This document shows, in pieces, positions 34,046 to 59,446 of a stretch of DNA of 64,000 nt. The position numbers and the translations under genes are program-made. Origin of the DNA: Candidatus Latescibacterota bacterium (GTDB lineage: Bacteria > Latescibacterota > UBA2968 > UBA8231); the NCBI GenBank assembly GCA_965248355.1, contig OZ252098.1:1536001-1600000 (forward strand), in the 5' to 3' direction. A model generated the notes under the pieces. That model was not told the DNA's origin. It saw nothing but the letters and a program-made list of their open reading frames with translations, and made no database searches. Position 1 is the first letter of the stretch. Every line of letters begins with the position of its first letter.

Positions 34046-34074
34046 GCAATTCTCTCAAACTCTGGAGGCTCCCA

Positions 34075-35016
34075 CTGTTCAGCTTACCCGGCCACTACAT
34101 CGGCGACGCTTGGTACTTCGTCGACGCAGACCGGCAGGCCCACTGTTACTTCCTGACGGCCCCCGACAGCCTGCCTCTCGACGAGCGCTGGTGGAACTGG
34201 GACATCGGCCACGCCACCAGCCGGGATCTCGTCCACTGGGAGTACGTCGGCCTGGCGCTGACGCGGGGTGCCGGCCACGCTTGGGACAGCAAGAAGCTGG
34301 CCACCGGCTCCGTCATCGAGCGCCACGGCCGGTTCTGGATGGCCTACACCGGCATCCGCCGGGACGATCCCCACCTGGTGCAACGAGTCGGCATGGCGGT
34401 CTCCGACGACCTCACTACCTGGACCAAGGTCGAGGGCAACCCGGTGACACAGGCCGACGGAGTCATGTACGAGAAGATCGGCACCGGCGAACGGGCCATG
34501 GGGCACTGGCGGGATCCCTTCCTGCTGGATTGCGGCGATCGGGTGCTCCAGTACGTCTGCGCCCGCACGCAGAGCGATGGCCAGGGTTGCGTGGCCGTGG
34601 CCTCGTCGACGGACATGGTCCGCTGGAAGCTGGAGCAGCCTCTCGTGGTCGACGTCATGACCGAGGAGATCGAGGTTCCCCAGGTGCATCGCATCGGCGC
34701 CCGCTACTACCTCCTCTTCGCGACCTTCCTTCGCGTCATCCTGCCTGAGTTTCGCCAAGAGCACCCCACCCACGAATTCAAGAACAGCGACTTCTCGATG
34801 GTGGGCCCGTCGCCTCAAGGTCCGTTCTCAATTCACGGAACGGGGGACGTTCATCCCCAAGCGCCGAATCCATATGCCTGCCAGCTAGTGGCCTTCCGCG
34901 GCGAGTGGTTTCTTCTGGGGACGGTGGTCCGTACCGCCAGTGGAGACGGAGACGACTACATAACCGATCCCATGCCGATCGTTGCCGGCGAAACCGGAAT
35001 CCACGCACTGACCTGA
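34075..35016 (+). CDS. GH32/GH68-like five-bladed propeller glycoside hydrolase
   Basis: The frame is open from CTG 34075 (GGAGG 6 nt upstream): LFSLPGHYIGDAWY...IGHATSRDLVHW...ATGSV...WRDP...EVP, with the clan GH-J acidic triad. Confidence 0.8.
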   Translation: MFSLPGHYIGDAWYFVDADRQAHCYFLTAPDSLPLDERWWNWDIGHATSRDLVHWEYVGLALTRGAGHAWDSKKLATGSVIERHGRFWMAYTGIRRDDPHLVQRVGMAVSDDLTTWTKVEGNPVTQADGVMYEKIGTGERAMGHWRDPFLLDCGDRVLQYVCARTQSDGQGCVAVASSTDMVRWKLEQPLVVDVMTEEIEVPQVHRIGARYYLLFATFLRVILPEFRQEHPTHEFKNSDFSMVGPSPQGPFSIHGTGDVHPQAPNPYACQLVAFRGEWFLLGTVVRTASGDGDDYITDPMPIVAGETGIHALT

Positions 35017-38534: not shown

Positions 38535-38564
38535 TTGACTTCTCATTGCTTGCTGCGCTACATT
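38535..38564 (+). promoter_or_regulatory. Candidate sigma70 promoter of the envelope operon
   Basis: TTGACT-18 nt-TACATT in an AT-rich intergenic region, upstream of a strong AAGGAG RBS at 38645. Confidence 0.5.
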
Positions 38565-38656: not shown

Positions 38657-40681
38657 ATGGCTCTGGTGGACCTTGCACGAAGAATGGCAATAACAGCGGC
38701 ATCGCTGCTGATCCTCTTCGGGGTTTCAGATGCCCAGGAGGAGCGTTTCTCGCGCTACGTAGGCTCCGAGGATCTGGGCCTCAACGACATGGACAGCGGC
38801 GGCAAGCCTTCGACGGCCGCCATCAGTGGCTTGACGGACATCACGGACTATGCCTTCGACGGCTCGGACCTGACCATTCCGTTTACACTTGAGGGGACGC
38901 AAACCGGTTCAGCGACGGTGTGGCTGGTCATCTACACCTCCGGCCAGAAGCCGCCCTTGACGATTGAAGGAGAAGGGCCTCCTCCCCACATCAAGGGCAA
39001 CTACGCCGATCCGGGATGGCATGTCTTCCAAGGGGTGGACTGGCTGGTCTACAGGTCTGACGGCGAGCGCTTTGATGCAGGCGACAACGAAATCGTCTGG
39101 AATGGCCGCGACATGGGCGGCAACGTGGTGGAAAAGGGCTCGTACGATCTCTTCCTGGCGGCCTTCGACGCCGACGCGAGGGCACACATCGTCGGCTACG
39201 CTCCGGGCCGGGGCGGCACGGGAGAAATGCTCATCGTCGATCCCGACGCCGAAACGCTGACGCGTCCCTACGAGTGGGTCGTCGACATGAACAACGACTT
39301 CATCAACAACCCCTCGGCGGCCACGTTCATCGACCGCACCGAAATCCACAATTCGGCTCCAGATGCGGGCGAAATTCCGGTCGGCCGTCACGTGTTCTGG
39401 TGGACGGACAGCGACCGGGAGCTGCCCTTCCACGTCTTCGACATGACCCCGCTCGGTTCGAGCGGCAACATCACCGACGACATGATGACCTATGTCGCCA
39501 ACGGTCAGAACCAGGGCGGTGGGCTGCTCTTCACGGGCACCTACGACCCTGTGGCACAAACGGCCGACGTCAACGAGGACTGGGGCGCGGACCATGGTGC
39601 CGTCAACGGATTCATCGATTACAAGGAGCTGCAGCCCACCCGCAAGTACGCGGTCCAGACCAACCCGGAGAAAACCAAGATTTACACCACCACCGGGATC
39701 GACGGCCTGATCGGCACGGTCGCCGTCTGGGATCTGGCAAGCGGCGAGAATCTCGCCTTGTGGGATCTATCCGAGATCTTCCTGTACGACAACAACGGCA
39801 GCGACCGGTGCGGCGGACCTGGTTGGTCAGGGCGGGACTACGCGGGTCAGCCCCCTGCCGAGGGTTTGACCCTCTCCGGACACCACACCTCGATCGTCAT
39901 GCGCCAGGACTACGATACCGGTGAGATCATGTGGATCAACCGGAACGGCGACGGCTTTGGCGACATGTACGTGCCGAAGACTTTTGGGGAGGAGCCGATT
40001 TACGGCCACACCTCGGGGGACGGCGCCAAGTACGGCATGAATGCGACGAAATGGGGCTGGACCTCCATTTCCCATACCGCCGTGAACTTCACCGATTACG
40101 GGTCCATGTTGGGTGAGGATGGCTCAGGGCTGTTCCTGTTTCAGCCGACGAACATTCCCAGTTCCGTTGCCAATTGGACAATGGTCGTCGACCACGACGA
40201 CAGCGCCTGGGACGGCTTCTACATCAGTGTAGGCGAGAATGACCCCGAGTTCAGATCGAATGACTGGGCGCCGCCCAAGCCCGAGGACGCCATCATCGAT
40301 TACTATTCCTACAAGTATTTCGTCCACCTGCCCTACGATCAGAAGCGGGTGAGCCTGGGCGAGATGCCGACGGCCGTTGCCGAGTTGGGCGGTGCCCTGC
40401 CTGCCAGCGCGGAACTGGGCGATGCCTATCCCAACCCGTTCAATCCCGAGACCACCATTCACTTCTCCCTGCCCTGGGAAGCACCGGTCAAGGTCGAGGT
40501 CTTCAATGACCAGGGCCAGCTGGTGACGACGCTGGTCAACGATCACATGGGTCCGGGGAACTTCTCCGTCACTTGGGACGGCAGAGATGCGAACGGCTCC
40601 GAGGTTGCGAGCGGGGTATACCTCTACAAGATCGAGAGTGTCAACCTGAGGTTGAGCAAGAAGGTCACCTTCCTCAAGTAG
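38657..40681 (+). CDS. Secreted protein with N-terminal FlgD-Ig and C-terminal FlgD/T9SS type-A-like sorting domain
   Basis: Signal peptide; VWNGRD..G..Y; C-terminal YPNPFNPETTIHF...WDGRD.NG..VASGVYLY...KKVTFLK. Confidence 0.82.
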   Translation: MALVDLARRMAITAASLLILFGVSDAQEERFSRYVGSEDLGLNDMDSGGKPSTAAISGLTDITDYAFDGSDLTIPFTLEGTQTGSATVWLVIYTSGQKPPLTIEGEGPPPHIKGNYADPGWHVFQGVDWLVYRSDGERFDAGDNEIVWNGRDMGGNVVEKGSYDLFLAAFDADARAHIVGYAPGRGGTGEMLIVDPDAETLTRPYEWVVDMNNDFINNPSAATFIDRTEIHNSAPDAGEIPVGRHVFWWTDSDRELPFHVFDMTPLGSSGNITDDMMTYVANGQNQGGGLLFTGTYDPVAQTADVNEDWGADHGAVNGFIDYKELQPTRKYAVQTNPEKTKIYTTTGIDGLIGTVAVWDLASGENLALWDLSEIFLYDNNGSDRCGGPGWSGRDYAGQPPAEGLTLSGHHTSIVMRQDYDTGEIMWINRNGDGFGDMYVPKTFGEEPIYGHTSGDGAKYGMNATKWGWTSISHTAVNFTDYGSMLGEDGSGLFLFQPTNIPSSVANWTMVVDHDDSAWDGFYISVGENDPEFRSNDWAPPKPEDAIIDYYSYKYFVHLPYDQKRVSLGEMPTAVAELGGALPASAELGDAYPNPFNPETTIHFSLPWEAPVKVEVFNDQGQLVTTLVNDHMGPGNFSVTWDGRDANGSEVASGVYLYKIESVNLRLSKKVTFLK

Positions 40682-40701
40682 GAGGCTCTCAGATGTTTCT
40701 C

Positions 40702-40737
40702 AAGTGCCACCGGTCTGTTGCCGGTGGCACTTTTTTT
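40702..40737 (+). terminator. Rho-independent terminator
   Basis: 12-bp stem AAGTGCCACCGG/CCGGTGGCACTT, 7-nt loop, T-run, ~20 nt after the stop. Confidence 0.88.
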
Positions 40738-40783
40738 GCCAAGAGACACCATAGAGACGAATCCCATAGGGAGGTGTGCCAGA

Positions 40784-42919
40784 GTGGACATTGGAAGATC
40801 TCTCCGCGCGGTGGCGCTCCCTGCCGCAGGGCTGTTGCTGGCACTCCACTGGCCGGTGGCTGCGCAGCTTCTCGAACGCGCTCCCATCGATACCTGGGCC
40901 ACCACGACCTACTATCTGGGCTACGCCGAATTTCCGGAGGCGACCAATGGCCGCATCCGCATAGCCGCCGCAGACCGCTATGACCTCTTCCTCAATGGGG
41001 ATCTGGTAGGGCGGGACGACGACCCCGGATCGGCCGAGGTCTACGATGTTCTGTTCAAGAAACGCACCAACATGGTGGCCGTCGTCGTCGGACATGACGG
41101 GACCACCGCCAGCGGCTACGGGCTGTTCTGCGTGCTGGAGGCCGATGGGGTGCTCATGCCGAGTTCCCCCACGGACCGCAGGACACCGTGGTTCTGGACC
41201 GATTTTGCTCTTCCAAACGAAGAGAAGGCCGAGTGGACGGAGCTGAGGCTCAACGAGCTTTCCGATCATGAGCAGGACGGCCAGAGCGTGACCTGGCGAA
41301 CGGTACAGGCCGGTACCCTCGACCCGCACGGATTCCCGGAGTTTGCCCACCTGGATCTCACCAGGGCCCGCAGCATAGCGGGCTTTCCCGGCGGCCTCGA
41401 CGGCAGCCGGGGTGGCCTGCGGCTGCGATCCTTCAAGGGGCAGAACCTCGCCTTCAACACCTTCTCCCGCGAACCCAAGCTCATCGACGGAGATATCGGC
41501 TCCCCGAAGAGCTACGGCAAAGGGGGGCGCGCACTGTTCGAGGAGGTTGAAGTCGACCTGGGGCGCCTGTTTCCAATCAACCGCGTAAGGGTTATCACGC
41601 AGCCCCCGGGGAGTTCCGGAAGCTACGAGGACAACTCGCTGCGTGGATACAGCGTTCTTGTCAGCAAGGACGGGGTCAACTACCTCGGTGTGGGGTCTCA
41701 GAACCAGATCACTGACTTCAACGAGACGGCGGTCGACTTCCCCACCATCATCGCCCGCTACATACGCATGGTGGTCACCGAGTTCGCCAACCGCAACGCC
41801 CTCCCCAAGGTCGGCGAGCTCGAAGTCTTTGGAGAGGGTCTCGATCGGCAGGGAACCTACCTCTCCCCTCCCCTCGATTTCGGTTCCACTGAGCGCAAGA
41901 ATTTCGACCGCGCCTTGCGGTTCGGCGACCCTTCAGCCACCGGGGAGATGGCCCTCCAGTTCCGCAGCGGAGACGATGGCGAGACCTGGAGCGGCTGGTC
42001 GACCTGGAGTCGGGATTCCGAGATTCAGCTCGCCGTGCCTGAACCCCGCCGCTTTCTCCAGTTCCAGGCGCTCATGCGGACATCCGACTCTTTCCAGGGT
42101 CCACAACTGGACAGCCTTGTCGTGCTCTACAGCGGTGCTCCCTTGCCGGCAACCGAAGCGGTAGCCTCAATCGTGCCGCTCCAGGCGCCCATCGGAGAGG
42201 ATGCGACATTCACCTATTCCCTCGAGCTCGAGATCGGCAACCAGGATTCCGGGATCGATCGCCTCGTAATCCTCACCTCGTGGCCGGCCCAGCTGGACAT
42301 CTCAAGCGTCGCCGGGGCCGTCAGCATCGACCTGGACCGAACCTACGCGACCGGGGATTCGCTCGTGATCGCCTTCGATCCCCCTATCGGCTCAGACGTG
42401 GAGATCGAGATTCCCTTCACATCCCGGCTGCTATCCGCGAGCCACACATTCCAGGGGCTGCTGTATGCACCGGGTACCGATCTCGCTCTTTCCGTCCAAC
42501 CGCGGGAAGGAGAGGATCCGCTCACGGGGCTGGCCTATTCGGTGGTCTCGGAGGCGGCGAGCTTCGATCTCCCTATTCTGCAGAATGTGCGCCCTTTTCC
42601 CCCCGTATTCACACCCAACGACGACGGGATCAACGATGGAGTCGGCTTCGGATTCACTCTGGGAAGAGTGTCCGCCGCACCCGTGCGCGTCGAGATCTAC
42701 GCCCTCGACGGCAACCTGGTCCGGACCCTGCCCGAGCAGCGCCTGAGTGCCGGCTATTCCGGGCCCTCCGACAGCGGGCGGGCGACGTTTCACTTCTCCT
42801 GGGATGGACGCGCACAGAGCGGGGACATCCTCTCCCCCGGACTGTACTTGTACCGCCTCGTGGTCGACACGGAGCCCGATCCTGAGATCGCCACCGGGGT
42901 CGTAGCAATCGCGTATTGA
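40784..42919 (+). CDS. Secreted protein with jelly-roll and discoidin (F5/8C) domains and a FlgD/type-B-like C-terminal domain
   Basis: GGAGGT RBS and GTG 40784; signal peptide; VDLGR..INRV..VSKDG..ARYIRM..ELEVFG (discoidin); FTPNDDGIND...WDGR...PGLYLY C-terminus. Confidence 0.8.
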   Translation: MDIGRSLRAVALPAAGLLLALHWPVAAQLLERAPIDTWATTTYYLGYAEFPEATNGRIRIAAADRYDLFLNGDLVGRDDDPGSAEVYDVLFKKRTNMVAVVVGHDGTTASGYGLFCVLEADGVLMPSSPTDRRTPWFWTDFALPNEEKAEWTELRLNELSDHEQDGQSVTWRTVQAGTLDPHGFPEFAHLDLTRARSIAGFPGGLDGSRGGLRLRSFKGQNLAFNTFSREPKLIDGDIGSPKSYGKGGRALFEEVEVDLGRLFPINRVRVITQPPGSSGSYEDNSLRGYSVLVSKDGVNYLGVGSQNQITDFNETAVDFPTIIARYIRMVVTEFANRNALPKVGELEVFGEGLDRQGTYLSPPLDFGSTERKNFDRALRFGDPSATGEMALQFRSGDDGETWSGWSTWSRDSEIQLAVPEPRRFLQFQALMRTSDSFQGPQLDSLVVLYSGAPLPATEAVASIVPLQAPIGEDATFTYSLELEIGNQDSGIDRLVILTSWPAQLDISSVAGAVSIDLDRTYATGDSLVIAFDPPIGSDVEIEIPFTSRLLSASHTFQGLLYAPGTDLALSVQPREGEDPLTGLAYSVVSEAASFDLPILQNVRPFPPVFTPNDDGINDGVGFGFTLGRVSAAPVRVEIYALDGNLVRTLPEQRLSAGYSGPSDSGRATFHFSWDGRAQSGDILSPGLYLYRLVVDTEPDPEIATGVVAIAY

Positions 42920-45609
42920 GGCCTATGCGCCATCCCCTCACCCTGATCCTCTGCTTCCTCCTGTGGGCCGTTCCGTCCGGCGGCCAGTTCCTCTCCAGGG
43001 ATACCCGCAAGCTGTGGGCCAACGAGGTGTTCGAGAACTACGGGGCCAACGGGTACCGGGACTACGATTTCGAGGAGGAGAATCGCCGTTTCGACATCTT
43101 CGGAGACCTCCTGATCGACGGCATCGATATCGTCGAATACAGCGAGGTACGCCGCAATGCGCCCGGACAGATAGGCAGCTACGAATCGCGCAGCGACGGC
43201 TACGACAACTTTTTTCAGAAACTCGTCATCGCCGACGAGGGGTTTGGCCGCTGGTCAACGCGGCTGATCATCGGCGAGCACCTGCGCACCGTCTTCACGC
43301 CCATGACCCTGAATCTCCCGAATTTCAACGGGGTCCGGTGGGATGGCTCATCGCGCAAGAGCCGATTCACTTTCATCGCCACGCACCTGAGAGATCCGCT
43401 CATTTTCCACAATCAGCTCGAGGAACGCCGGGTCTTCGGCACGGGTCTGGTAGGCGGACATTGGGAAAGCCAGGTGGGCGACATCCTCAAGATAGGCACG
43501 ACCTACGTCAACGCGCACCGCTTCGACGCCGAGGCCAGTGCCACCCTCAACGGCCTGAAGGGTGATGTTCCGGGCGTGGTCCAGGAGGGCGGGCTGCGCC
43601 GGGTCTTCGTTTTCTTCACCGACGACGCGCCCCACGATGCCGCGCCAGGGGCAACGGTCCACGGATTGACGATGTACGCAGACGGGATGGCCGTGGAACA
43701 GGTGCGAGTGGGGAAGATCGAGCGCATACTCGACCGCATCCCCGTTACCTCCGACCGAAGCAACACCGTCCCGCTGAATCCAAACGATGTGCACTACCTC
43801 CGCCGCAACGGCTCCTGGCTCCCGGCGGTGGTCGAGGCCAGCAACGTCAACTTCATTCCCATCCTGCTGGACCGCATCACGCTGCCGGCGGCGCCGGCTG
43901 GGAGTGGAGCGCCCCTGGTGGCCAATGGCACGGACGTGGTCTTCTACGAGTACGAGGTCCCCCACGGCGCCCGCGACGTCCGCTTCGAGGCGATTCTGGC
44001 CAACGACTACAGCGTCGACGTGGTCGGAGGCATGCAGGTACCCCTCTTCGATTCGGGGACCGACTACGGTGATCTTTTTTACGACTGGAACAATACGTTG
44101 CGAGCCAAGGGCAACCCGGGCAGCAGTTCCAACCTGCGCCGGGTGCACTTCCGCTACGGGCTTCCCACCGGTCTGGAAATACTGGGCTTCGACTTCGAGG
44201 CCGAGATCCTGGGCAGCAGCATCCAGGGCGAATACGCGCGCAGCACGAGATTCCTGAAGACTCCTGCCTCCGGCGGGGCTCGTCACGACCGCAAGAGTTC
44301 GACCTTCCATGTGAACCTCTTGAGATCTCTTGGCTCGAATGCGGAAGTGGGTCTGGAATGGTTCGATGTTCCATCCGACTACACCACCGATTTCCCCCTC
44401 TTTCGGGACTCGTCCCAGGGGTTTCCGGTGGGCGGCAAAGTCTATGATCGCTTTGCCCTGGTCGAGGACAACGACGATCTGGATACCTGGCCGGACCGGG
44501 CGGAACACGGGGACCCCCTTGCCTTCTACTCTCGCTCAACGGCAGAGGGCTACGGGGTCTTCCCGGGGTTGGACCTGAACCGGGACGGGCGGCTGGACCT
44601 CAACGTGGGCGGCAATGCCTATACACCTTTCCTGGGCTACTACATCGATCCCCCCGAGCTCGTCTACGGTGATGATTTCAACAACAACGGAATCGCCGAC
44701 CTGCGAGAGAACGACAACCTGCCGGACTACCTCTACCCCTTGGACCATCGCGGCTTGCACGCCTTCGTCTCCGTGAAGCCCACAGCGCGTTCCCTCGTGC
44801 GTTTCGGGGGATACCGCATGGGTCAGCCGATTCTGGGATTGTCCAGCCACGTGGCCTACGTGGAAGGCCAATACGAGCGCAAATGGAAGGAGTCCGGGCA
44901 CCTCCGTTTGAACCACCGGCTCAAATGGGCGGAGGATGATATTCCCAACACCATCTACCAGTTCGTCGATGAAGAGAGGCTGCCGACCGGTCTGCTCCGT
45001 AGGAGCCGCTACGAGCTGCAACCGGACCTGCTGCAGGATCGGGACAGCATCGACAACCTGACCCATCTCGAGGCCAGGGTGAAGGTCCTGCCCGGTCTGA
45101 ATATTCACAATGTCCTCTCATTCACGCACATCGACCTGGGGGGGGCGCCCCTCGATGATCCGCTCACGGCGGCGCCGGGTACGATCACCCACTTTTCAAT
45201 GGTCAACAAGGCGGACTACACCTGGCATTGGAACCCCTTCAAGATCATTACGCAGTTCAAGCACATCTTCCAGCGCAGCAAGTTCCCCGAGCGCGTCATT
45301 GCGGACAGACAGACGCGTTGGCTCATTCCCATTGTCCGCATGGACTACCAGGTGGGCCCCAACACAAGCCTCAAGACCGGCGTTCAAGGCCTTCCCCTGC
45401 TGCCGGAGAGATCCCTCGATCCCACCGCCAGTCCGGAGAGGAATTTCCACCGCCGTACCTGGACCGCCTTTCTGCAGAACAGAAGCAACCACCGCGGCTA
45501 TGACTTGACTTTGTTGTTCGGAACGTACCGCACCCATACCCGCTATACGGGCTCCCCGCGGCCGTCCCTGGGCTACGTGGAATACTTCTTCAAGGTCTTC
45601 ATAGGGTGA
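42916..45609 (+). CDS. Large secreted, putative outer-membrane beta-rich protein, paralog 1 (Ca-binding Asp motifs)
   Basis: Signal peptide; VEDNDDLDTWPD, GVFPGLDLNRDG, DDFNNNG; alternating amphipathic strands ending YFFKVFIG. Start is TTG 42916 or ATG 42925. Confidence 0.7.
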   Translation: MRPMRHPLTLILCFLLWAVPSGGQFLSRDTRKLWANEVFENYGANGYRDYDFEEENRRFDIFGDLLIDGIDIVEYSEVRRNAPGQIGSYESRSDGYDNFFQKLVIADEGFGRWSTRLIIGEHLRTVFTPMTLNLPNFNGVRWDGSSRKSRFTFIATHLRDPLIFHNQLEERRVFGTGLVGGHWESQVGDILKIGTTYVNAHRFDAEASATLNGLKGDVPGVVQEGGLRRVFVFFTDDAPHDAAPGATVHGLTMYADGMAVEQVRVGKIERILDRIPVTSDRSNTVPLNPNDVHYLRRNGSWLPAVVEASNVNFIPILLDRITLPAAPAGSGAPLVANGTDVVFYEYEVPHGARDVRFEAILANDYSVDVVGGMQVPLFDSGTDYGDLFYDWNNTLRAKGNPGSSSNLRRVHFRYGLPTGLEILGFDFEAEILGSSIQGEYARSTRFLKTPASGGARHDRKSSTFHVNLLRSLGSNAEVGLEWFDVPSDYTTDFPLFRDSSQGFPVGGKVYDRFALVEDNDDLDTWPDRAEHGDPLAFYSRSTAEGYGVFPGLDLNRDGRLDLNVGGNAYTPFLGYYIDPPELVYGDDFNNNGIADLRENDNLPDYLYPLDHRGLHAFVSVKPTARSLVRFGGYRMGQPILGLSSHVAYVEGQYERKWKESGHLRLNHRLKWAEDDIPNTIYQFVDEERLPTGLLRRSRYELQPDLLQDRDSIDNLTHLEARVKVLPGLNIHNVLSFTHIDLGGAPLDDPLTAAPGTITHFSMVNKADYTWHWNPFKIITQFKHIFQRSKFPERVIADRQTRWLIPIVRMDYQVGPNTSLKTGVQGLPLLPERSLDPTASPERNFHRRTWTAFLQNRSNHRGYDLTLLFGTYRTHTRYTGSPRPSLGYVEYFFKVFIG

Positions 45610-48395: not shown

Positions 48396-48401
48396 GGAAG
48401 C

Positions 48402-51400
48402 ATGACGAGCCACTTGCGATTCAGCTTGTTCACCGCGTCGGTCCTCCTCCTTCTCGCGGGCGCCCTGCGAGGGCAAGAGGAGACGCAGCAGGGGCCGGAA
48501 CTGGTTGACCAGCTGCCGTCGCGCATTCTGCCGGACCAACCTTTCCTAGGCCGCTTCGGCGAGGCCCCCTACAGAAACTACGGGTTGGAGAACTACTCCC
48601 GCCGGCCTGAATTCACCAGCAATCTGGCATATCACTACAACACCATGGGTGATCCTCTCATATACGGCACCCGGGCGGTGAACTGGGTCGAGCGCCGCGG
48701 ACTTGGCGTGCAACGGGGGTATTCCGCCATAGGCGAGACCGGAGGTCACGGCGAGACGGGAAACGCCTACCAGCGTCTCTTCGATCACGTACTGATCGGC
48801 ACCGATGGCACGGACTCGTGGCAGGCCAAGTTCATCTACGGGGATGAAGTTCGCTCGTCGCTCACACCCCTGACGATGAAGCTGTCCAACATGAACGGTC
48901 TTCGCGTCGACGTGGGCACCGACAACGACAGTTTCTCGGCTTTGTTCTCAACCCTTCCCTGGTCCCGCAACTCGGCTCAGGGCGTCACCCCGGACGGCGG
49001 ACCCAGCGCCAGGGTCCCCACCATGATGCTCTCCGCCCACTACGAACGCAAGGTCGGCTTCCTCAACTTCGGAGGCACCTTCCTCAACGTGCACCAGTAC
49101 GAGCCGCTCATGTCAAGCGAGTTCGAAACCCTGCAGGGCGTGGCCGGAGCCGTTCAGACCGCGCCGGCCATGGTCGCACTCCGCATCCTGGACGACTCCC
49201 CACAGGATGGCAGGGGGGGACCGGTCTTGCACGATGTCAAGGTGTACGTAAACGGCGAGCCGCGCCCCGAGCTGGAGCCCTTTGTCGTCCACCTCCACAA
49301 ACGCGGTGACGAGCGGCAGATCTACGTGGCGCCCCTCCTGAACTCGGGGGAGCGCTTTGGCCTGCCACCGCGGCCCGAGGCCAACAATTACCAGACCGTC
49401 AATGCAGGCGGCCTGTTCAGCACCTATGAAGCCTACATAAACACGGCCCGCATCGATCCCCAGGTGTTCTACCGGGGCTACGAGTTTCCCTTCTTCATCG
49501 ACCACCTCCTCTATCGCGACTTCAAGCTCCACGGGCCCGACTACGTCGTGGATGCCGAGAACGACAGGACGGTGCACACCGAGTTCGCCCATGAGCTGGC
49601 CGAGCCCTCCGGGGACTTCCTCGGCTTGTACACCATGACAGATCTGCCCCAGGCCTTCGACGGTGAGACCTATGGTGTTCTCTACGTGGACCTCGAGTCC
49701 CTTCGCCAGTTCATCACCTCGGTGGAAATCGAGCTGACCCTGGCCAACGACTACCGCGTGGAGATGTCCCAGATCCCCATGGCCCGGTCGACCGAGCGTC
49801 CGCCGGTTGACAACCATTCCCAGCGCTACCGCTACGCTTCCTTTTTCCGCACCGTGGCCCGCGCCGGCGGCAATCCCCAGGACGGGGTCCCCAGGAAGGT
49901 CAGGATCAAGGTGGGAGCGCCCACGGGAATGCGGCTCACAAGCCTCAACGCCAACGGCGTATTCAAGGGTTTCCAGATCAATGCCGAACTCGCGGGGAGC
50001 AGCCAATACCATCAGTACATCAGCGGCCCTCCGGGACCGCGTCTGCCTCAGGATGCCCTTCCCATCAACGCCCTCGAGCGGGCCAAGAGGCCCGGAGCCC
50101 GGCACACCATAAGCGACCGGTCCTACTACGTTACCGTGCAGCGGGATTTCAAGCGCTGGGGATTGGGCGGCGAGTGGTTCTCCATGGGACCCCTCTACAC
50201 GACCGAATTCCGCAGCTTCATCGCCGCCGACGAGTTCAATCTCCAGGGCTTCCCGATCCCCTTCAACAACACCCTCATCCACCGGATGGTCGAAGACAAC
50301 GACGACAACGACCGCTACCCGGACAGCTGGTACGTCTTCTTCGACAAGAAGCAGGCCCAGACGGACATCGATGGGGTCTTCCCGGGACTGGATGCGGACA
50401 GCGACGGGATTCCGGACACCAACCGCAACCTGAACCAGGAGCCGGACTACCTGGAACCCTTCCTCATGTACGGCGCGGACCCCCAGGTCTTCGACTACGG
50501 CCTCGATCTCAACCACAACGACTACATCGACTCCCGGGAAAACGACTGGGAGGCGGATCTGCCGTACGATCCGGATCTGAAGGGTCTGCACCTGTACGGA
50601 AGCTACAAGCCGCTGCCGGGCCTGAAGCTGACGCTGGGTTCCATGGATGCCCAACAGAACGCGGGCGCCCTGCCCAGCGAGGTCCTCTACACCCGCCTGG
50701 GCTACGCTCGGAGCGTACCGACCATCGGGCGCTTCTTCAGCGAGCTCTCCGTGGAGCGGGTACGCGATGGCGTGGCGGATCCCTTGAGTGTGTACAGTGA
50801 CCGGGTGCTCACCGAGGCCGAACAGAACGAGATCTTCTCCATCAACCAGCGCAACCAGCAGATAGCCCCCTTCCGCGAGGAGATCCGCGAGGATCCGCTG
50901 AACTACAAGAACAGCACGTTCACGCGGCTCTTCACCGAGGCTCATTGGCATTTGGTGCCGCATCTCAACATGCACAACAAGGTCAAGGTAGAGGTCAACC
51001 ATCAGCACGGGGGAGAACTCTTCGACAAGTCCGAGCAGGAAGGGGACCGCCGGTCGCGGTGGACCATGGCCCACAAGATCGACTACGATTGGAAGATCCG
51101 GCCCCGCGTCAGCTTGTTCTGCGGGTTCAAGTTCCGCTACCACAAGGAGTGGCAGCGCAGCCAGGGGCTGCCCGCGGTGCACGAGCGGCACCTGATTCCC
51201 CTCATGAAGCTCGAGTATCGACTTACCGGGCGGACCCGCTTCCAATTCGGGGTTCAGGGGATCACTTCCAGGCTTCCTTACTCGGTAACCGACTTCGTCC
51301 GTCCCGAAGAGGACTTCCAGCAGCGCGACACCGTGTTCATGATGACGAATCTGTCCAGGTATTTCGGTTACATCATCTCCTCCAATGCCGGATTGCGGTT

Positions 51401-51500
51401 TCGACTGAAGGAGTTCAGCGATCCGGCTGTTGATCAGACCCGAAGTGAGCGCTTCACGGCCGTTTTCATCAACGCCATTCTGGGCTTCGAGGACGACTGA
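48402..51500 (+). CDS. Large secreted, putative outer-membrane beta-rich protein, paralog 3
   Basis: Same collinear motifs (LTPLTM..NGLRVD, VEDNDDNDRYPD, GVFPGLDADSDG, DLNHND); ends VFINAILGFEDD. Confidence 0.7.
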   Translation: MTSHLRFSLFTASVLLLLAGALRGQEETQQGPELVDQLPSRILPDQPFLGRFGEAPYRNYGLENYSRRPEFTSNLAYHYNTMGDPLIYGTRAVNWVERRGLGVQRGYSAIGETGGHGETGNAYQRLFDHVLIGTDGTDSWQAKFIYGDEVRSSLTPLTMKLSNMNGLRVDVGTDNDSFSALFSTLPWSRNSAQGVTPDGGPSARVPTMMLSAHYERKVGFLNFGGTFLNVHQYEPLMSSEFETLQGVAGAVQTAPAMVALRILDDSPQDGRGGPVLHDVKVYVNGEPRPELEPFVVHLHKRGDERQIYVAPLLNSGERFGLPPRPEANNYQTVNAGGLFSTYEAYINTARIDPQVFYRGYEFPFFIDHLLYRDFKLHGPDYVVDAENDRTVHTEFAHELAEPSGDFLGLYTMTDLPQAFDGETYGVLYVDLESLRQFITSVEIELTLANDYRVEMSQIPMARSTERPPVDNHSQRYRYASFFRTVARAGGNPQDGVPRKVRIKVGAPTGMRLTSLNANGVFKGFQINAELAGSSQYHQYISGPPGPRLPQDALPINALERAKRPGARHTISDRSYYVTVQRDFKRWGLGGEWFSMGPLYTTEFRSFIAADEFNLQGFPIPFNNTLIHRMVEDNDDNDRYPDSWYVFFDKKQAQTDIDGVFPGLDADSDGIPDTNRNLNQEPDYLEPFLMYGADPQVFDYGLDLNHNDYIDSRENDWEADLPYDPDLKGLHLYGSYKPLPGLKLTLGSMDAQQNAGALPSEVLYTRLGYARSVPTIGRFFSELSVERVRDGVADPLSVYSDRVLTEAEQNEIFSINQRNQQIAPFREEIREDPLNYKNSTFTRLFTEAHWHLVPHLNMHNKVKVEVNHQHGGELFDKSEQEGDRRSRWTMAHKIDYDWKIRPRVSLFCGFKFRYHKEWQRSQGLPAVHERHLIPLMKLEYRLTGRTRFQFGVQGITSRLPYSVTDFVRPEEDFQQRDTVFMMTNLSRYFGYIISSNAGLRFRLKEFSDPAVDQTRSERFTAVFINAILGFEDD

Positions 51501-51505
51501 GACCC

Positions 51506-54500
51506 ATGACCCTGTTCCTTGTAGTTACCGCGCTCACCCTGGGGGGGACCTTCTTTGCCTCTCGAGTGCCCAATGAAGGTGACATGGTCAACACCTTCCG
51601 GGAGGCCCAGCGATTCTATGCCGAGGGCGCCTACGATCAGGCCATCGCCCAGTATGAGGCCGTCTCGAAGATACGCAGCCGGGCCCTGCGTTCCGAGAGG
51701 ATCCAGGTAGCCGTGGGTCAGGGGGAGTTTCCCCTGCAGGAGGCTGCCGACTATCAGATCGGCAACTCCTACGCCAAGGTCTACGAAGACCACGCCAGGG
51801 GCGCGGAAGACGAGCGCCGCGGGAGCCGGCGCGCAGAACTCGAGACGAAAGCCGACAGCGCCTTTGCGGCTGCAGCGAGTGCCTTTCAGCGGGTTATCGC
51901 CGGCTCCACCAGCGAGGTGTTGAAGGTGCAGGCCTACGGAAGGCTCATCGACCTCAATTTCAAGGCCAGGAGGTACCCCGAGGTGATCGAGGCGGCCCGG
52001 GCCCTGAGCGCGACCTATCCCGAGGATCCGCGGGTCGTCGTGGGCTACTACAACACCGGGTGGGCCCTGTACAAGATGAAGGACTACGACGGGGCCATCG
52101 ACGCCTTCGAAGCACTCCTCGCCCGGTTCCCCACCGGTTATCGGGCGGACCGCAGCCTCTTCCAGATCGGCGAGTGCTACCTGGAAACGGGCCGGTACGA
52201 GCAGGCCATGGACGCCTACCGTCAGTTGATAGACCGCCAGCAGGTCCAGGATCTGACCGAGGTGGAACTGCGGCGGATACAGCGAGAGAAGATCGCCGGT
52301 CTCGTGGATGAGACCGCCCTGGAGCTGGCGGCCAAGGCACAGATTCGCATCGGCACCTGCTATGCGCGGCTGGGCCGCTATGAGGAGGGGTTGAGCGCCT
52401 ATCGGCAGGTGATCACTCTCTTCGGCTCGGAGCGGAACCTGGTTGAGGAGGCTTACCTGCGCATGGCAGACCTTCACCAGGAGACGGGCGACTTCGATGC
52501 CAGCATCCGCACCTATCGGGAGGCTATCGATCAGTCCGCCCACCGCACGCTGAGGGCCCGAATTCAGTACGCGCTGGCAGAGAGCTATTTCTCGCGGGCG
52601 AGGTATGACGCTGCGGTCCGGGAGTATCGAGTCTACCTCGATGGGTATGGCGATATCGCACTGGCGGCCGGTTTCACCCAGGGACGCGTTCGCTATCGCA
52701 TCGGGAGCGCCTACCAGCAACTGGCCGACAGCGCGGAGGGCCAGGACAGGCCGGCGGTGGACGACTGGTTGAAGCGGGCCATCGCCCAGTACGACACGCT
52801 GTGCTCGGACGAGACCTCGCCCTACTTCCTGGACGCGCGCTTCAACCGGGCCCTGGCCTTCCAGTCTCTTGGCACGGACAGCTCCCTGGCCTTGGCAGAG
52901 GAGAAGTTCGGAGCGATCGTCCAGGAAGCGGTAGACCAGGGCTACGTCCAGCGCGCCCTGGTGCAACTGAGTGAGCTCCACTATGAGCGAGGCCAATACG
53001 ACCAGGCGGCGCGGACCTCGCAGAAGCTCCTGGATGCCTGGCCCGACAGCGACTACAAGGACAAGGCGTACATGCGCCTCGCCCTCTCGCACCAGGCCGC
53101 GGGCGATCCCGAGCGCGCCCTCCCCGCCTTTCTGGAGGTGCCCGAGAGCTCTCCCCTCTTCGCCCGCGCGCGCCTCGGTGGAGGACACGGTCTGCTGAAC
53201 GCGGGCCGATTCTCCGAGGCCGCCCGGGTCCTGGCGGAGGGTTTGTCGAGGGTAGATGACGACGTGCAGCGAAGCAGTTTCAACTACCTCCTCGGTCAGG
53301 CTTACGGCGGGCTGGGAGAGAACTCCAGGGCTGTAACCCACTTCTCCGCGGCCCTCGAGTATCCGGTGGCGCCGGAACTGGCCCAGGCCCTGCGTTTCAG
53401 CCGCGGCAATGCCGCTTTCTCCATAGAAGCGTATGACCTTGCCGAGAAGGACTTCGCCTGGATCGTGGACCACGTGCACGACCAGGAGAAAATCCGGTCC
53501 GCCAAGGACGCTCTGGCCCTGATCTATGTGAGGCAGAACCGCGGGACCGAAGCCGTGCGGACCCTGGGCGACATGGCCGCCGAAGCCACGAGTCCCGAAG
53601 AGCGAGCCCATCTCCTGAGTCGCCTGATGGACTTGCACTACCAGGAGAACAACCACACGGAGACGATCGCCCTGAGCCGGCGGTTGATCGACCTCGACTT
53701 CGCAGATGAGTTGAGCCCGGGTCAGGCCTACCGGCGCAAAGAGAAGGCCTACTTCCTCATGGGCGATGCGCTGGCGCGGCTCGACCGCAGCGCCGAAGCC
53801 GCCGAGGTCTTCACCACGGCCCTGCAACGCTTCCCCGAGTCCTACTTCGCCACGGATATGCGGCTGGCGCTAGGTGTCCACTATTTCGAGCAGGGCGAGC
53901 TCGAGCGGGCCAAGGGGGTCTTCGTCGACCTCGTCAAAGCCGACTCCCGCCCCGACCACCGGCTCATGGCGGGCTTCTATCTGGCCAATACCCAATACAG
54001 CTTGAGGGAGTTCGACCGGGCCCGGACCTCCTTCGACCAATTGCTGCGGGACTACCCGGAGGCGCAGGCCCTGCCGGATCTCCTCTTCGGCCTCGCGGAG
54101 AGCCATTACCAGCTGGGAGACTTCGAGGCGGCCATCCACCACTACCAGCGCATTCTCGCGGAATTCCCTCGGGATGCCACGGCCGCTCGTTCGCTGTACA
54201 ACACGGCCTGGTGTCTCATCGAACTCAAGAGGCAGGACGAGGCGATGGAGGCCTTTCGCACCCTCCTCGAACGGTATCCGCGAAGTGAGTTCGCGTCCTC
54301 GGCCCAGTTCACGCTGGCCGACGATGCCTACAACCGCGGGTTCCATGAAGAGGCCATGAGGACCTACCGCCTCGTTCAGGAGCGATTCCCCGGAGATCCC
54401 CTGGCGGCCCAGGTGCCGCGCCTTCTCTCCGAGATCACCGAGGCCATCGCGTACAAGCACTACGAGCAGGCTCTCGCGTTGATGAATTCGGCCAGGACGG

Positions 54501-54763
54501 CCGAAGAGGAGACCCGGCGGAAGGAATACTTCGAGCAGGCCATAAGCTCGTTCCAGGAGATCAGCGCCCGCTATCCCGGCACGGAGAGCGAACTGGGTGC
54601 GCTGAGCAATATGGGAGTCTGCCTGGAAGAACTGCGGCAATGGCGCGAGGCCGTGGCGGTGTACGATCAGGTGATCGAGATGTACAATGAAAAGCGGGCG
54701 AGCAAGGAAGTCTTCCAGTTCGTCAAGGCCCACAAGGACTGGATCGTCACAACGAGGCTGTGA
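51506..54763 (+). CDS. Giant tetratricopeptide-repeat protein (BamD/CpoB-like repeats), N-terminal signal or anchor
   Basis: Many repeats of the type Y..A...F..L...[FY]P.....A.[YF]..G over 1085 aa. Confidence 0.9.
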   Translation: MTLFLVVTALTLGGTFFASRVPNEGDMVNTFREAQRFYAEGAYDQAIAQYEAVSKIRSRALRSERIQVAVGQGEFPLQEAADYQIGNSYAKVYEDHARGAEDERRGSRRAELETKADSAFAAAASAFQRVIAGSTSEVLKVQAYGRLIDLNFKARRYPEVIEAARALSATYPEDPRVVVGYYNTGWALYKMKDYDGAIDAFEALLARFPTGYRADRSLFQIGECYLETGRYEQAMDAYRQLIDRQQVQDLTEVELRRIQREKIAGLVDETALELAAKAQIRIGTCYARLGRYEEGLSAYRQVITLFGSERNLVEEAYLRMADLHQETGDFDASIRTYREAIDQSAHRTLRARIQYALAESYFSRARYDAAVREYRVYLDGYGDIALAAGFTQGRVRYRIGSAYQQLADSAEGQDRPAVDDWLKRAIAQYDTLCSDETSPYFLDARFNRALAFQSLGTDSSLALAEEKFGAIVQEAVDQGYVQRALVQLSELHYERGQYDQAARTSQKLLDAWPDSDYKDKAYMRLALSHQAAGDPERALPAFLEVPESSPLFARARLGGGHGLLNAGRFSEAARVLAEGLSRVDDDVQRSSFNYLLGQAYGGLGENSRAVTHFSAALEYPVAPELAQALRFSRGNAAFSIEAYDLAEKDFAWIVDHVHDQEKIRSAKDALALIYVRQNRGTEAVRTLGDMAAEATSPEERAHLLSRLMDLHYQENNHTETIALSRRLIDLDFADELSPGQAYRRKEKAYFLMGDALARLDRSAEAAEVFTTALQRFPESYFATDMRLALGVHYFEQGELERAKGVFVDLVKADSRPDHRLMAGFYLANTQYSLREFDRARTSFDQLLRDYPEAQALPDLLFGLAESHYQLGDFEAAIHHYQRILAEFPRDATAARSLYNTAWCLIELKRQDEAMEAFRTLLERYPRSEFASSAQFTLADDAYNRGFHEEAMRTYRLVQERFPGDPLAAQVPRLLSEITEAIAYKHYEQALALMNSARTAEEETRRKEYFEQAISSFQEISARYPGTESELGALSNMGVCLEELRQWREAVAVYDQVIEMYNEKRASKEVFQFVKAHKDWIVTTRL

Positions 54764-54770
54764 GTAGAGA

Positions 54771-56009
54771 ATGAACTCCAGGCCCGATCGTTTCAGCTCT
54801 GCCAGCGACGGCATCGACCGGCGCAGATTGCTGGCCGAGACCCGGGGGCTAGTGGCCGTCGGTCTGTTGATCAGCATGGGGCTTCTGGGGGGGGCTTTCC
54901 TCTACTTCATAGCAGTGCCCAAGGAGAGGAAGGCCCCGCCGCCGCCGATCGCCGAGCTCGTCATCCGCAAACCCAGGGCCTCGAAGCCGTTCCAACTCAA
55001 GCGCCAGCGCCTGGCGCCGCGAGCCCTGATCAGAAGAGTGAGCGCCCTGAAGCCCCGCCTGGCCATGGCCGCGCCACGCCTCAGCGGTGCGTCCATGTTC
55101 GGACGGATTGAGACCTTCGACTACGCCGTCGAGACCGATGTTCAGATCAACCTCCAGACCGGCCCCGTCGAGTTCTCCGCGGCCCGGGTCACCGGTACGA
55201 AGGAGCCGGAGAAGCGCATCGCCATGCACGAGGAACTGCTCGACCTGGATGCGCTCGATACCGGGAAATACAAGGGGCTCATCATTCAGGATCCGACGGA
55301 CCGTCGCAAGGTCAAGGGGTTCGTCTACCTCGGTACGGCGTGGGCCACCGATCTGGAGCCGATCTTCGACAGCGCCGCCAAGGCGATTCCCAATCTCGTC
55401 GATGCGGTCAATGCCCTGACCGGCATCACCGCAAAGGTGGATGAGCACCTGTTCGTCGATTCCCAGGAGCTCTTTCGGACACCCTTCGTCTACATCACCG
55501 CGCAGGAAGCCTTCGAACTGACGGATCGGGAGAAGACCAACCTCGAGAAATACATGCGCCAGGGAGGGTTCGTCTTTGCCGACAACGCCAACGCCGTCGT
55601 CGAATTCAGTCAGGCCGAGGCATCCCTGCGTCAGATTTTCCGAGACGCCCTGGGCTCACAAGGTCAATTCCGGCCCATACCCAACACCCATCCCCTGTAC
55701 CACACATTCTACGATTTTGACGGCCCTCCGGTCGGATCGGAGCTGGATGTCCCCTCCGACCAGGAGCAGTGGTCCATCTCCTACCGCATCGTCGCTCAGC
55801 ACTCCTATCACCTTGAAGGCGTGTTCCTGGGTGACCGTCTCGTTGCTCTCTACTCGGACAAGGGATACGTCCACAAGTGGGCGGAGAACTACGGCAACGA
55901 GCCGCAGTTGCGCTTCGGCATCAACGTGGTCGTCTTCGCTCTGACCCAGGAAGGCTCGATCGCGCAGCAGCAGATCGACTATTTCAGTGAAGGCGGTGGA
56001 GAACAGTGA
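54771..56009 (+). CDS. Membrane-anchored DUF4159 domain protein with Pro/Lys/Arg-rich linker
   Basis: N-terminal TM, KAPPPP..RKPRASKPF linker; C-terminal PFVYIT..NLEKYMRQGGFVFADN..HPLYHTFYDF..G.NVVVFALT fits DUF4159. Confidence 0.78.
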   Translation: MNSRPDRFSSASDGIDRRRLLAETRGLVAVGLLISMGLLGGAFLYFIAVPKERKAPPPPIAELVIRKPRASKPFQLKRQRLAPRALIRRVSALKPRLAMAAPRLSGASMFGRIETFDYAVETDVQINLQTGPVEFSAARVTGTKEPEKRIAMHEELLDLDALDTGKYKGLIIQDPTDRRKVKGFVYLGTAWATDLEPIFDSAAKAIPNLVDAVNALTGITAKVDEHLFVDSQELFRTPFVYITAQEAFELTDREKTNLEKYMRQGGFVFADNANAVVEFSQAEASLRQIFRDALGSQGQFRPIPNTHPLYHTFYDFDGPPVGSELDVPSDQEQWSISYRIVAQHSYHLEGVFLGDRLVALYSDKGYVHKWAENYGNEPQLRFGINVVVFALTQEGSIAQQQIDYFSEGGGEQ

Positions 56010-56088
56010 ACCTGTCACGCCGTCTCCGCGGATCGCCGCATCATCGAGGCCCCGATAGAACATCCTCTGCCGAAAAGGAGTAGCCGGA

Positions 56089-56826
56089 ATGTGGGAGATC
56101 ATAAAGAGCGGCGGCCCTCTCATGGTGCCCCTGGTCGGATGCGCCGTGTTGTCCCTCGCCTTCATCATCGAGCGCTTGTGGGTGTTCAGCCGCCTGCCCG
56201 GCCGCACCCAGGCCCAGGAGGACCTGCAACGGTTCGAGTCCGCACTCGTCCGTGGAGGTGAGGACGCCGTGGTGGAGGAGTGCAACCAGGGGAAGGGGGT
56301 GCTCAACTACGTCTTTGCCTCCCTGTTGACGCGTCACAATACCCTCATGCTGGAGCAACGGGAATTCCAGGAGACGCACGAGGAGATCATCCAGCTTTCC
56401 GAGGCCGGCGGCGGCGGGCCGATGGGGCGTTTCATCGAGATGCGGCAGGAATTGGCCGACTTGAAGGAAGAGCTCGTGATCGAGACCGAAAAGGCCTCGC
56501 GGCTGTACCTGGGAAAGCACCTGCCTGTCTTGAGGATGATAGGGAACATCAGTCCCCTGTTGGGGTTGCTGGGGACGATCCTCGGAATGATCGTTGCGTT
56601 CGAGTCCATCGCCGCGGCCGGTACCGGAGACCCGAAGGTGGTGGCCGACGGGATCTCCCAAGCCCTGGTCACGACGGCGAGCGGGTTGATCGTCGCGATC
56701 CCCACGATCGTGGCCTACGGGTACCTGGCGCGCAGGGCCGAGTTGTTCCTTGACCAGGTCGAGGTCTTCGGTCACGCCTTTTCGAGCACCCTGATCAGTG
56801 CCGGGCAGCGAAAGAAGAAGGACTAG
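56089..56826 (+). CDS. MotA/TolQ/ExbB proton channel protein
   Basis: GGPLM..ER, SPLLGLLGTILGMI, GISQALVTTASGL.VAIP. Confidence 0.95.
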   Translation: MWEIIKSGGPLMVPLVGCAVLSLAFIIERLWVFSRLPGRTQAQEDLQRFESALVRGGEDAVVEECNQGKGVLNYVFASLLTRHNTLMLEQREFQETHEEIIQLSEAGGGGPMGRFIEMRQELADLKEELVIETEKASRLYLGKHLPVLRMIGNISPLLGLLGTILGMIVAFESIAAAGTGDPKVVADGISQALVTTASGLIVAIPTIVAYGYLARRAELFLDQVEVFGHAFSSTLISAGQRKKKD

Positions 56827-59432: not shown

Positions 59433-59446
59433 AGGAGTCACCCACC

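Follow-up and report, generated by a model that had tools for sequence, protein, structure and literature searches.

A conserved gene cassette of Candidatus Latescibacterota with three giant paralogous proteins: a candidate proton-motor-coupled outer-membrane machine

We analysed a stretch of 64,000 nucleotides from a Candidatus Latescibacterota bacterium (assembly GCA_965248355.1, contig OZ252098.1, positions 1,536,001 to 1,600,000 of the forward strand; hereafter the window, whose numbering is used unless a genome position is named), and in it an eight-gene cassette at 38657..56826. This cassette belongs to the proton-motor-coupled outer-membrane machines, and what is new among them is its family of outer-membrane proteins, the head of its force transducer and its unusual design with three paralogs. 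The most economical reading of the gene content is a multi-subunit role at the outer membrane, with a Ton-like motor linked through a TonB-shaped protein carrying a DUF4159 domain. The function that we favour, with a confidence that stays somewhat short of even, is that of a substrate-specific machine for capturing and importing glycans, resembling a polysaccharide utilization locus.

The genes follow one another in the order CTD1 (38657..40681; 674 amino acids), for an exported surface protein with a type-A sorting tail of a type IX secretion system (T9SS) and a body that is weakly beta-propeller-like; CTD2 (40718..42919; about 700-733 amino acids), for another exported protein of the surface, which combines a discoidin (F5/8 type C) sugar-binding domain with a T9SS tail of type-B-like form; P1 (42916..45609; 897 amino acids), P2 (45606..48395; 929 amino acids, ending ...GLKPLF) and P3 (48402..51500; 1,032 amino acids), for members of one giant outer-membrane-type family, each in the clade of the same name; a gene for a tetratricopeptide repeat (TPR) protein (51506..54763; 1,085 amino acids, with an N-terminal hydrophobic segment); the gene for the DUF4159 protein (54771..56009; 412 amino acids); and ExbB (56089..56826; 245 amino acids), for an ExbB/TolQ-type proton-channel subunit with three membrane helices. 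An earlier interpretation made from the letters alone (the sequence-only reading) had described eight co-oriented, unbroken genes of which the middle six overlap or lie less than 10 nt apart, and this was confirmed: all eight open reading frames (ORFs) lie on the + strand with zero in-frame stops, and the gaps from CTD2 to the DUF4159 gene are -4, -4, +6, +5 and +7 nt, with 36 nt between CTD1 and CTD2 and 79 nt between the DUF4159 gene and ExbB. GC content at third codon positions is 0.76-0.87 against 0.40-0.48 at second positions, therefore the eight ORFs are coding. The claim that all eight products carry export signals or membrane helices stood for seven, in which a hydropathy scan found an N-terminal hydrophobic segment; the signal peptide of CTD1 was below the threshold of the scan and could be seen by eye alone. 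The assigned domains (the FlgD_ig/type-A tail of CTD1, the all-TPR protein, DUF4159 and MotA_ExbB), the paralogy of the three large proteins and their lack of a recognisable known motif all held in the searches described below, and the gene neighbourhood, whose conservation had been proposed as a check, proved to be co-conserved in the loci of 11 genera and repeated within the genome.

The comparison took in 11 genomes, each of a different genus, and in each of them the locus that is orthologous or else nearest. P2 comes after P1 in 11 of 11 loci, TPR and DUF4159 genes are there in 10, the eleventh locus ending at a contig end, and seven show the complete order CTD1-CTD2-P1-P2-P3-TPR-DUF4159. 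Two genera (G011 and G017) have a rearranged form, with P3 behind the DUF4159 gene, a second CTD2-type gene instead of CTD1, and a cassette-type ExbB gene not downstream of the cassette but upstream of it, on the opposite strand. Within the genome under study, which is one contig of 5.50 Mb with 68.9% GC, the P2-family profile found 24 called genes and four more in six-frame translation only, in 13 loci. The genome holds five full cassettes (CTD1, CTD2, P1, P2, P3 and a TPR protein of about 1,083 amino acids) and two partial ones; full-length CTD1 paralogs head four cassettes besides the studied copy, TPR proteins of about 1,083-1,161 amino acids occur at seven loci and DUF4159 proteins at five. 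The paralogous cassettes (labelled B to F where they must be told apart) have diverged to 26-40% identity.

A FastTree phylogeny of 44 family members placed P1, P2 and P3 in separate clades with 100, 100 and 99% support, with one of each per full cassette, and eight members from single or paired loci in a fourth clade. The internal branching of the P1, P2 and P3 clades matches, therefore the triplication is older than the spread of the cassette. One P1, one P2 and one P3 in each cassette is the pattern that would be expected of non-interchangeable subunits.

Of 151 genomes sampled from the phylum, 94 were found to have the giant family, with the following distribution over their taxonomic families (f1 to f14): all sampled genomes of f1 (63/63), f10 (13/13), f5-f7 and f11-f14 have it, as do 5/6 of f9, and it was not found in f2 (0/30), f4 (0/19), f3 (0/2) and f8 (0/5). 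A first look gave candidate counts of up to 115 per genome. A search of 1.84 billion representative proteins returned 843 clusters (50% identity) at E<=1e-3 and 282 at E<=1e-30. The named relatives of P2 are nearly all from metagenome-assembled genomes of Candidatus Latescibacterota, and a small number of records carry the labels Gemmatimonadota, Handelsmanbacteria, Myxococcales or Puniceicoccaceae. As a separate observation, two DDE_3/HTH transposase genes with identical Pfam scores lie at genome positions 543665-544753, just upstream of cassette C, and 1482622-1483710, beside a DUF6785 locus; they are likely copies of one insertion sequence and a possible route for the shuffling of cassettes.

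P1, P2 and P3 are mutually paralogous at 26-29% identity (E 1e-41 to 3e-74), P1 and P2 being 26% identical over their full length (E 2e-66). None of the three matched a Pfam or NCBIfam family at E<=0.01, PDB searches with two family profiles and with single proteins gave rows at chance level only, and no characterised transporter family was matched by sequence or profile. Two candidates were tried and rejected. The family alignment was compared by hhalign with the 19 TonB-dependent receptors of the genome, which gave a probability of 0.4%. The nearest named cluster in a protein atlas (0.89-0.90) was DUF6029, a TonB-receptor-like barrel, and hhalign against the DUF6029 protein of the genome gave 0.2%. 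The only Pfam match that recurred in the family was SlpA_C (PF21620), in 5 of 30 and later in 12 of 53 members; all of these matches fall under the cut-off of 35 bits (the best printed are 26.6 bits, E 2.6e-6, and 24.5 bits; the best E-value, also sub-threshold, is 2e-7), and they span about positions 200-313 of the 656 in the profile, or some 100 residues. There was in addition one weak match to the PelB barrel.

We infer from their sequences that P1-P3 are outer-membrane beta-barrels. Their cleavable signal peptides carry Gln at +1 (in P1, ...SGG before the Q), the family has little Cys (0.15%) and much Gly, Tyr, Phe, Asp and Asn, P2 has 35 segments of alternating hydrophobicity, part of them overlapping, and an alternating hydrophobic strand ends 0-4 residues from the C-terminus, the terminal residue of P2 being Phe. 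Covariation was analysed in 239 sequences (effective number about 150-200), taking the top 45 pairs per block in P2 numbering. Antiparallel ladders were obtained from 151-196 to 161-187 (five pairs), from 682-748 to 688-740 (five pairs) and from 758-793 to 763-786 (four pairs), and 741-769 goes with 745-765; these ladders are putative antiparallel hairpins of a meander. A strongly conserved Asp/Asn-rich segment at about 530-625 of P2 (VDDNDDxD ... GxFPGLDxD ... DxNNN ... RExD) resembles, we presume, calcium-binding loops.

The two surface proteins connect the cassette with type IX secretion. CTD1 matched FlgD_ig (2.2e-14), Por_Secre_tail (PF18962; 27.8 bits against a cut-off of 27) and Arylsulfotrans (0.0035) in Pfam, and TIGR04183 in NCBIfam (32.9 bits against a cut-off of 23), so that its tail is of type A; its FlgD Ig tail was the sole match above chance level in the PDB searches, and its signal peptide ends ...SDA before QEE. 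CTD2 matched F5_F8_type_C (5e-11), and its tail scored below threshold with CHU_C (PF13585; 17.5 bits) and FlgD_ig (20.1 bits), both against a cut-off of 27. The tail of CTD2 has the motif VFTPNDDGINDG ... VAIAY, the form VFTPN(G/D)DGxND ... VAY is kept in 21 relatives, and several CTD2 paralogs score above the CHU_C cut-off. Elsewhere in the genome SprA_N was found once (genome position 430016) and PorV at 4993347 and 4127751, and Pfam detected no SprA or PorV homology in the cassette proteins, P1-P3 included. Because the genome has its own SprA and PorV elsewhere, the cassette is not a substitute for the T9SS, and CTD1 and CTD2 are best read as ordinary T9SS cargo.

The CTD1 start codon, an ATG at 38657, is preceded by the ribosome-binding-like sequence AAGGAGAG. 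A promoter-like site (TTGACT-18-TACATT, 38535..38564, + strand) upstream of CTD1 is a consensus match only, and with 1 found against 2.9 expected in shuffles it is not significant alone. Directly 3' of the CTD1 stop lies a terminator-like hairpin (40702..40732, + strand; 13-bp stem with 8 G-C pairs, and a T-run), which overlaps the earliest possible TTG start of CTD2, whose true start is uncertain. Two RNA runs labelled sponge metagenome contain parts of the stretch. RNA contigs of two metatranscriptome runs (X19 and X20, of one study) cover CTD1 over 38782-40708 and end at 40708 and 40680, and contigs over the genes downstream of it are short, thin and sparse. Contigs cannot rank expression, and these are contigs only, of one study; they hint no more than weakly at CTD1 as the abundant product, with read-through into the remaining genes.

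Tails of the CTD2 type are closely tied to the giant proteins. A giant-protein gene is no further than 15 kb from 15 of the 17 above-threshold CHU_C matches of the genome, a distance that takes in 8.6% of the genome, and 15 was reached in 0 of 10000 random draws; a CTD2-type gene also stands directly upstream of the first giant-protein gene at most loci, including those with only one or two family members. Perhaps, then, the cassette is not an importer, and encodes a motor-linked platform that anchors or moves surface proteins with type-B-like tails, in adhesion, gliding-like movement or regulated display. The giant barrels would be the partners of these proteins in the outer membrane, as barrels of the PorP/SprF family are for SprB in Bacteroidota, and the TPR protein, the DUF4159 protein and the ExbB/ExbD motor would shift them, put them under tension or release them. 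Proteins with type-B tails are reported to be anchored on PorP-like barrels (PMC9143113) and SprF to be driven by a moving track (PMC12635249), and the grouping of a TolQR-like motor with a TonB-like protein and a giant TPR protein recalls the Agl-Glt core complex (PMC3169522). The PorP/SprF model PF11751 had no match genome-wide and TIGR03519 only a weak one, on a PorV-like gene, which would call for another partner of the tails; however, neither model matched in any control genome either, so that their sensitivity, and with it the absence from this genome, is unproven. The tail of CTD2 in the studied cassette is itself under the CHU_C threshold, barrels of 900-1,030 amino acids in three conserved kinds far exceed what an anchor appears to need, and the catabolic, permease and regulator context described below is left unexplained, as are the many diverged copies. 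The anchoring explanation accounts best for the pairing of tails and barrels and not for the catabolic context, and we regard it as possible, leaning to the doubtful side.

The last three genes of the cassette suggest a motor and its connection to the outer membrane. The TPR protein matches TPR families over its full length in Pfam, with a YfiO/BamD-like match at 8e-17, and tol_pal_ybgF in NCBIfam (7.8e-70) with YbgF-like triads in 7 stretches; we read it as a periplasmic scaffold. The DUF4159 domain (PF13709) scored 106.1 bits against a cut-off of 25.9 (2.3e-30) over residues 200-391 of its protein, which begins with a short N-terminus in the cytoplasm (conserved motif RF.APSD) and continues with one membrane helix (about 27-48), a linker rich in Pro, Lys and Arg (of the type ER.APPP..L.IRKPR..K.F.LKRQR) and the DUF4159 head. 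This TonB/TolA-like layout is common to 12 of 14 aligned relatives, in whose helix no conserved His or in-membrane Asp was seen. Pfam found no TonB_C (PF03544) in the protein, which had no PDB relative; the sole TonB_C match of the genome, at genome position 2229876 (2.23 Mb), adjoins a non-cassette ExbB. A short form of DUF4159 (open frames of about 220-250 amino acids, E about 1e-62 to 1e-75; in this genome at 2129992-2130567) is present in 150 of 151 phylum genomes and differs from the TonB-shaped form of the cassette.

ExbB matched MotA_ExbB (PF01618) at 96.1 bits against a cut-off of 22.9 (1.7e-27), with helices at about 9-27, 153-178 and 192-210, and did not reach the equivalog models (TolQ 91 bits against 221, ExbB 69 against 206). 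Its closest paralogs are the ExbB proteins of cassettes B and C (362 and 353 bits), with two non-cassette ExbB proteins at 83 and 60 bits, and the cassette ExbB genes form a group of their own. ExbB genes stand at four loci of the family in the genome: alone in the studied copy, with two ExbD genes in cassette B, and with one ExbD gene in C and in F; at all four the DUF4159 gene is their neighbour. No ExbD ORF was found at 56700-57800, after the ExbB gene of the studied copy, therefore the motor of this copy is incomplete. A step in GC content coincides with the ExbB stop, the very place for an ExbD gene, so that this copy is perhaps truncated or uses an ExbD from elsewhere. Given this ExbD-less copy and the full cassettes D and E, which have no motor genes nearby, the cassettes might share a motor, do without one or have no relation to it. 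Behind ExbB and ExbD of cassette C lies a gene for a DUF4340 protein (7.6e-46; genome positions 566770-568113); we take DUF4340 to be a companion of GldG-like ABC-auxiliary proteins of gliding bacteria.

These observations on the motor bear on another explanation, in which P1-P3 are large passive or specific porins beside surface lectins, and the TPR, DUF4159 and ExbB genes are a separate Ton/Tol-like module that is neighbour to them by chance. It could point to cassettes D and E, which have the TPR gene and neither DUF4159 nor ExbB nearby, to the lack of ExbD in the studied copy, to the two genera with ExbB upstream on the opposite strand, and to the short DUF4159 form, which occurs also in genomes where the giant family was not found. 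Yet in 10 of the 11 loci, all of different genera, TPR and DUF4159 genes stand behind the barrel genes (in the studied copy at distances of 5-7 nt), the ExbB and DUF4159 genes are cassette-specific paralogs, and the number of DUF4159 matches follows the presence of the barrel family (4-19 per genome with the giant family, 1-2 where it was not found). We consider this explanation unlikely.

The genes around the cassettes give a nutrient context. Divergent upstream of the studied cassette are a GNAT-like gene, a gene for a multi-pass membrane protein with DUF6785 and DUF6784 domains (35048..36973, - strand; 641 amino acids, DUF6785 4.1e-123, DUF6784 6.3e-23, at least eight hydrophobic helices) and a GH32/GH43-type glycoside hydrolase-like ORF (34018..35016, + strand; 332 amino acids, Glyco_hydro_32N 1.2e-18, Glyco_hydro_43 5.8e-15), the last two being linked context outside the operon. 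DUF6785/DUF6784 proteins form a multi-pass family of 25 copies in the genome, and 8 of the 13 giant-protein loci have a DUF6785 gene no more than 15 kb away, where 2.0 were expected and none of 5000 shuffles came to 8. The neighbours of DUF6785 genes elsewhere in the genome serve mostly sugar and sugar-acid catabolism (enolase-superfamily enzymes, lactonases, GFO/IDH/MocA oxidoreductases), with BNR sialidase-like, UxuA, CBM9 and PcRGLX-like genes and one CarboxypepD_reg-type receptor-like gene besides. The family is a good candidate for an uncharacterised group of permeases. As an observation on this family, its copies lie nearly always among genes of sugar, sugar-acid or peptide catabolism. 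The flanks of other cassettes hold a sulfatase, GlcNAc-2-epimerase-like enzymes, DUF4838, CBM9 and a GDSL lipase-like protein. Nine upstream regions of relatives contain DUF6785 in three cases and enolase-superfamily genes in three, and also UxuA and a ThuA/GSDH/CBM6 protein with a T9SS tail; one relative has a GntR-type regulator with a sugar-binding domain immediately before the cassette.

The same context speaks to the possibility that the cassette works outwards, as a machine for export or envelope biogenesis (polysaccharide or surface layer) comparable either to exporters that pair TPRs with a barrel (BcsC, PgaA, PelB) or to giant barrels of the SlpA type, which link the outer membrane and the cell wall. 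SlpA is a very large trimer-forming barrel. The combination of TPR protein and barrel, the recurrent SlpA_C matches with the one to PelB, and, as a weak hint, the longer RNA contigs on CTD1 than on the downstream genes, as suits a structural surface protein, are what such a machine might leave in the data. However, glycosyltransferase, polymerase or synthase genes were found in no cassette examined, every SlpA_C match is sub-threshold and covers a small part of the profile, and the five to seven diverged copies per genome with catabolic flanks suit uptake better. An exporter seems improbable to us.

In the import reading that we favour, CTD1 and the discoidin lectin CTD2 would be exported by the cell's own T9SS and retained at the surface, where P1, P2 and P3 would assemble as a hetero-oligomer of very large beta-barrels, serving both as a dock for the surface proteins and as a passage. 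The TPR protein would scaffold the periplasmic side, and the DUF4159 protein would transmit force to the barrels from the cassette-specific ExbB(/ExbD) proton motor. The substrate might then cross the inner membrane through the neighbouring DUF6785/DUF6784 protein and be processed by the adjacent enzymes. The barrel fold, the hetero-oligomer, every physical contact, the direction of transport and the substrate are the parts of this scheme that we infer. The sequence-only reading had offered a T9SS-like or a Sus-like analogue; the Sus-like comparison has gained, because of the lectin-type surface proteins, the many diverged copies and the nearby catabolic and permease genes, and the T9SS-like one was dropped with SprA and PorV encoded elsewhere in the genome.

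Several points weigh against an importer of this kind. The import function is argued from genomic context, and an anchoring role would explain just as well why type-B-like tail proteins are so tightly paired with the giant ones. The link to DUF6785 is partial, at 8 of 13 loci in the genome and 3 of 9 upstream regions in relatives. No plug domain (PF07715), TonB-dependent barrel (PF00593) or TonB box was recognised in P1-P3, and the 21 Plug matches of the genome are all outside the cassette. The barrel fold is itself argued from sequence features: the enrichment of ladders in the covariation analysis is modest (20 against 9.3+-4.3, with a parallel control at 18 against 10.1+-4.5), the analysis did not resolve closure of the barrel, contacts between the N- and C-terminal parts were noise, and a full-length run with a reduced alphabet was no better than the parallel control. 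The ExbD-less motor of the studied copy and the motorless cassettes D and E belong here as well.

Among described systems, the SusC/SusD loci of Bacteroidota are alike in their many diverged copies per genome, in surface sugar-binding proteins encoded beside a large outer-membrane protein, and in what is linked to them: a motor of the Ton type, a permease-like gene for the inner membrane, enzymes of catabolism and (for the cassette, in one relative) a sugar-sensing regulator. Unlike them, the cassette has no plug or TonB-dependent barrel signature, three giant paralogs in place of one SusC, surface proteins with T9SS tails instead of lipid anchors, a transducer head of DUF4159 and not TonB_C, and the 1,085-amino-acid TPR protein as an obligatory part. 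Perhaps the Latescibacterota and their kin possess a SusCD counterpart of their own, with a 1:1:1 hetero-oligomer of giant barrels whose family is unrelated to TonB-dependent receptors, lectins delivered by the T9SS to load it, a Ton-like motor that gates it through a new transducer, the DUF4159 head, and a TPR scaffold. In that case a further class of proton-driven outer-membrane machine would stand beside Ton, Tol, Agl-Glt and GldLM/T9SS; we put this forward as a possible and by no means probable refinement.

In the SprB-SprF pair of Flavobacterium (PMC9143113, PMC12635249), too, the gene of a surface protein whose tail is of the FTPNGDGxND type stands directly upstream of that of an outer-membrane-type protein, and a motor driven by protons takes part. 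The partners in the cassette differ: they measure about 900-1,030 amino acids, are of three kinds and have no PF11751 or TIGR03519 match, and in place of GldLM and a GldK track there is an ExbB/ExbD-like motor whose connector is TonB-shaped. SlpA of Deinococcus and Thermus (PF21620) provides the only recurring Pfam family among the giant proteins; the P1-P3 family differs in having no SLH domain or coiled coil, its matches are sub-threshold, and PDB profile searches missed SlpA. We know of no Glt counterpart to the giant barrel family and the T9SS-tailed lectins. The Agl-Glt core complex of Myxococcus and relatives (AglR/Q/S, GltD, GltE, GltG, GltC; PMC3169522) is otherwise alike in a TolQ/R-type motor, large exported TPR proteins, a TonB-like bitopic protein whose linker is proline-rich, and clustering in one region, sometimes with several copies per genome; the comparison is one of architecture only, from published descriptions, and the cassette differs in its DUF4159 head.

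The closest published parallel to the motor side is the group of TonB/TolA-like transducers headed by a vWA domain (Williams-Jones et al. 2025, PMC12204202), which share the membrane helix, the disordered proline-rich linker and a head that is not TonB. They are encoded beside TPR and tolQ/tolR-like genes, and in one subfamily with TolQ alone, just as the studied copy is without TolR/ExbD (PMC12204202). The cassette differs from them in a head that is DUF4159, and not vWA by Pfam, and in a helix where no conserved His or in-membrane Asp was seen. In our literature search the term DUF4159 turned up only in the Pfam database paper and no mention of DUF6785 or DUF6784 was found; a search on the Latescibacteria outer membrane, polysaccharide utilization, sponge symbionts and glycoside hydrolases, with supplements outside its scope, turned up no account of the system. 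PMC12993501 mentions none of TonB, outer membrane, T9SS or sulfatase, and non-specific porins are assumed in PMC4454575.

The cassette sits inside a 25-kb stretch (31.9-56.9 kb of the window) of about 62% GC, between flanks of 72-77% GC, and sharp GC steps at 31.9 kb and 56.85 kb bracket it together with its upstream genes. We considered an assembly chimera at these steps and did not assume one, because a DNA contig from run X1 (possibly the source sample) spans 55895-57800, across the right-hand step, with zero differences, and other stretches of similar GC are abundant in the genome. DNA contigs of two runs diverge at about 56984-56996, some 150 nt past the right-hand step, therefore the sequence after ExbB varies between strains. 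Genes of very high GC for PQQ/BamB-like beta-propeller proteins flank the region (23112-28266 and 56842-60706), one of them starting 16 nt past ExbB; the ORFs at 23112-25097 (-) and 24483-26846 (+) overlap, and one is probably not real. Further out in the window, a proteasome beta-subunit-like gene (TIGR03690, 7.9e-47) near a proteasome-ATPase-like AAA gene (TIGR03689 pup_AAA, 3.4e-137) at 1280-5654 (-), both under the equivalog cut-offs, indicates a possible bacterial proteasome module in the phylum. At the other end a Thoeris ThsA Macro domain (4e-34) is encoded by an ORF (63316-63999, +) that runs past the end of the window in DNA of 51-59% GC and may mark the beginning of a defence island.

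If the favoured reading is true, a widespread uncultured phylum would take up complex substrates by machinery unlike both TonB-dependent receptors and SusCD. It would bring a new family of giant outer-membrane proteins and a new head domain for TonB-like force transducers, assign a role to the uncharacterised domains DUF4159, DUF6785 and DUF6784, and link type IX secretion to nutrient uptake. Counts of polysaccharide utilization loci that use SusC/SusD as markers would then miss equivalent capacity in these lineages.

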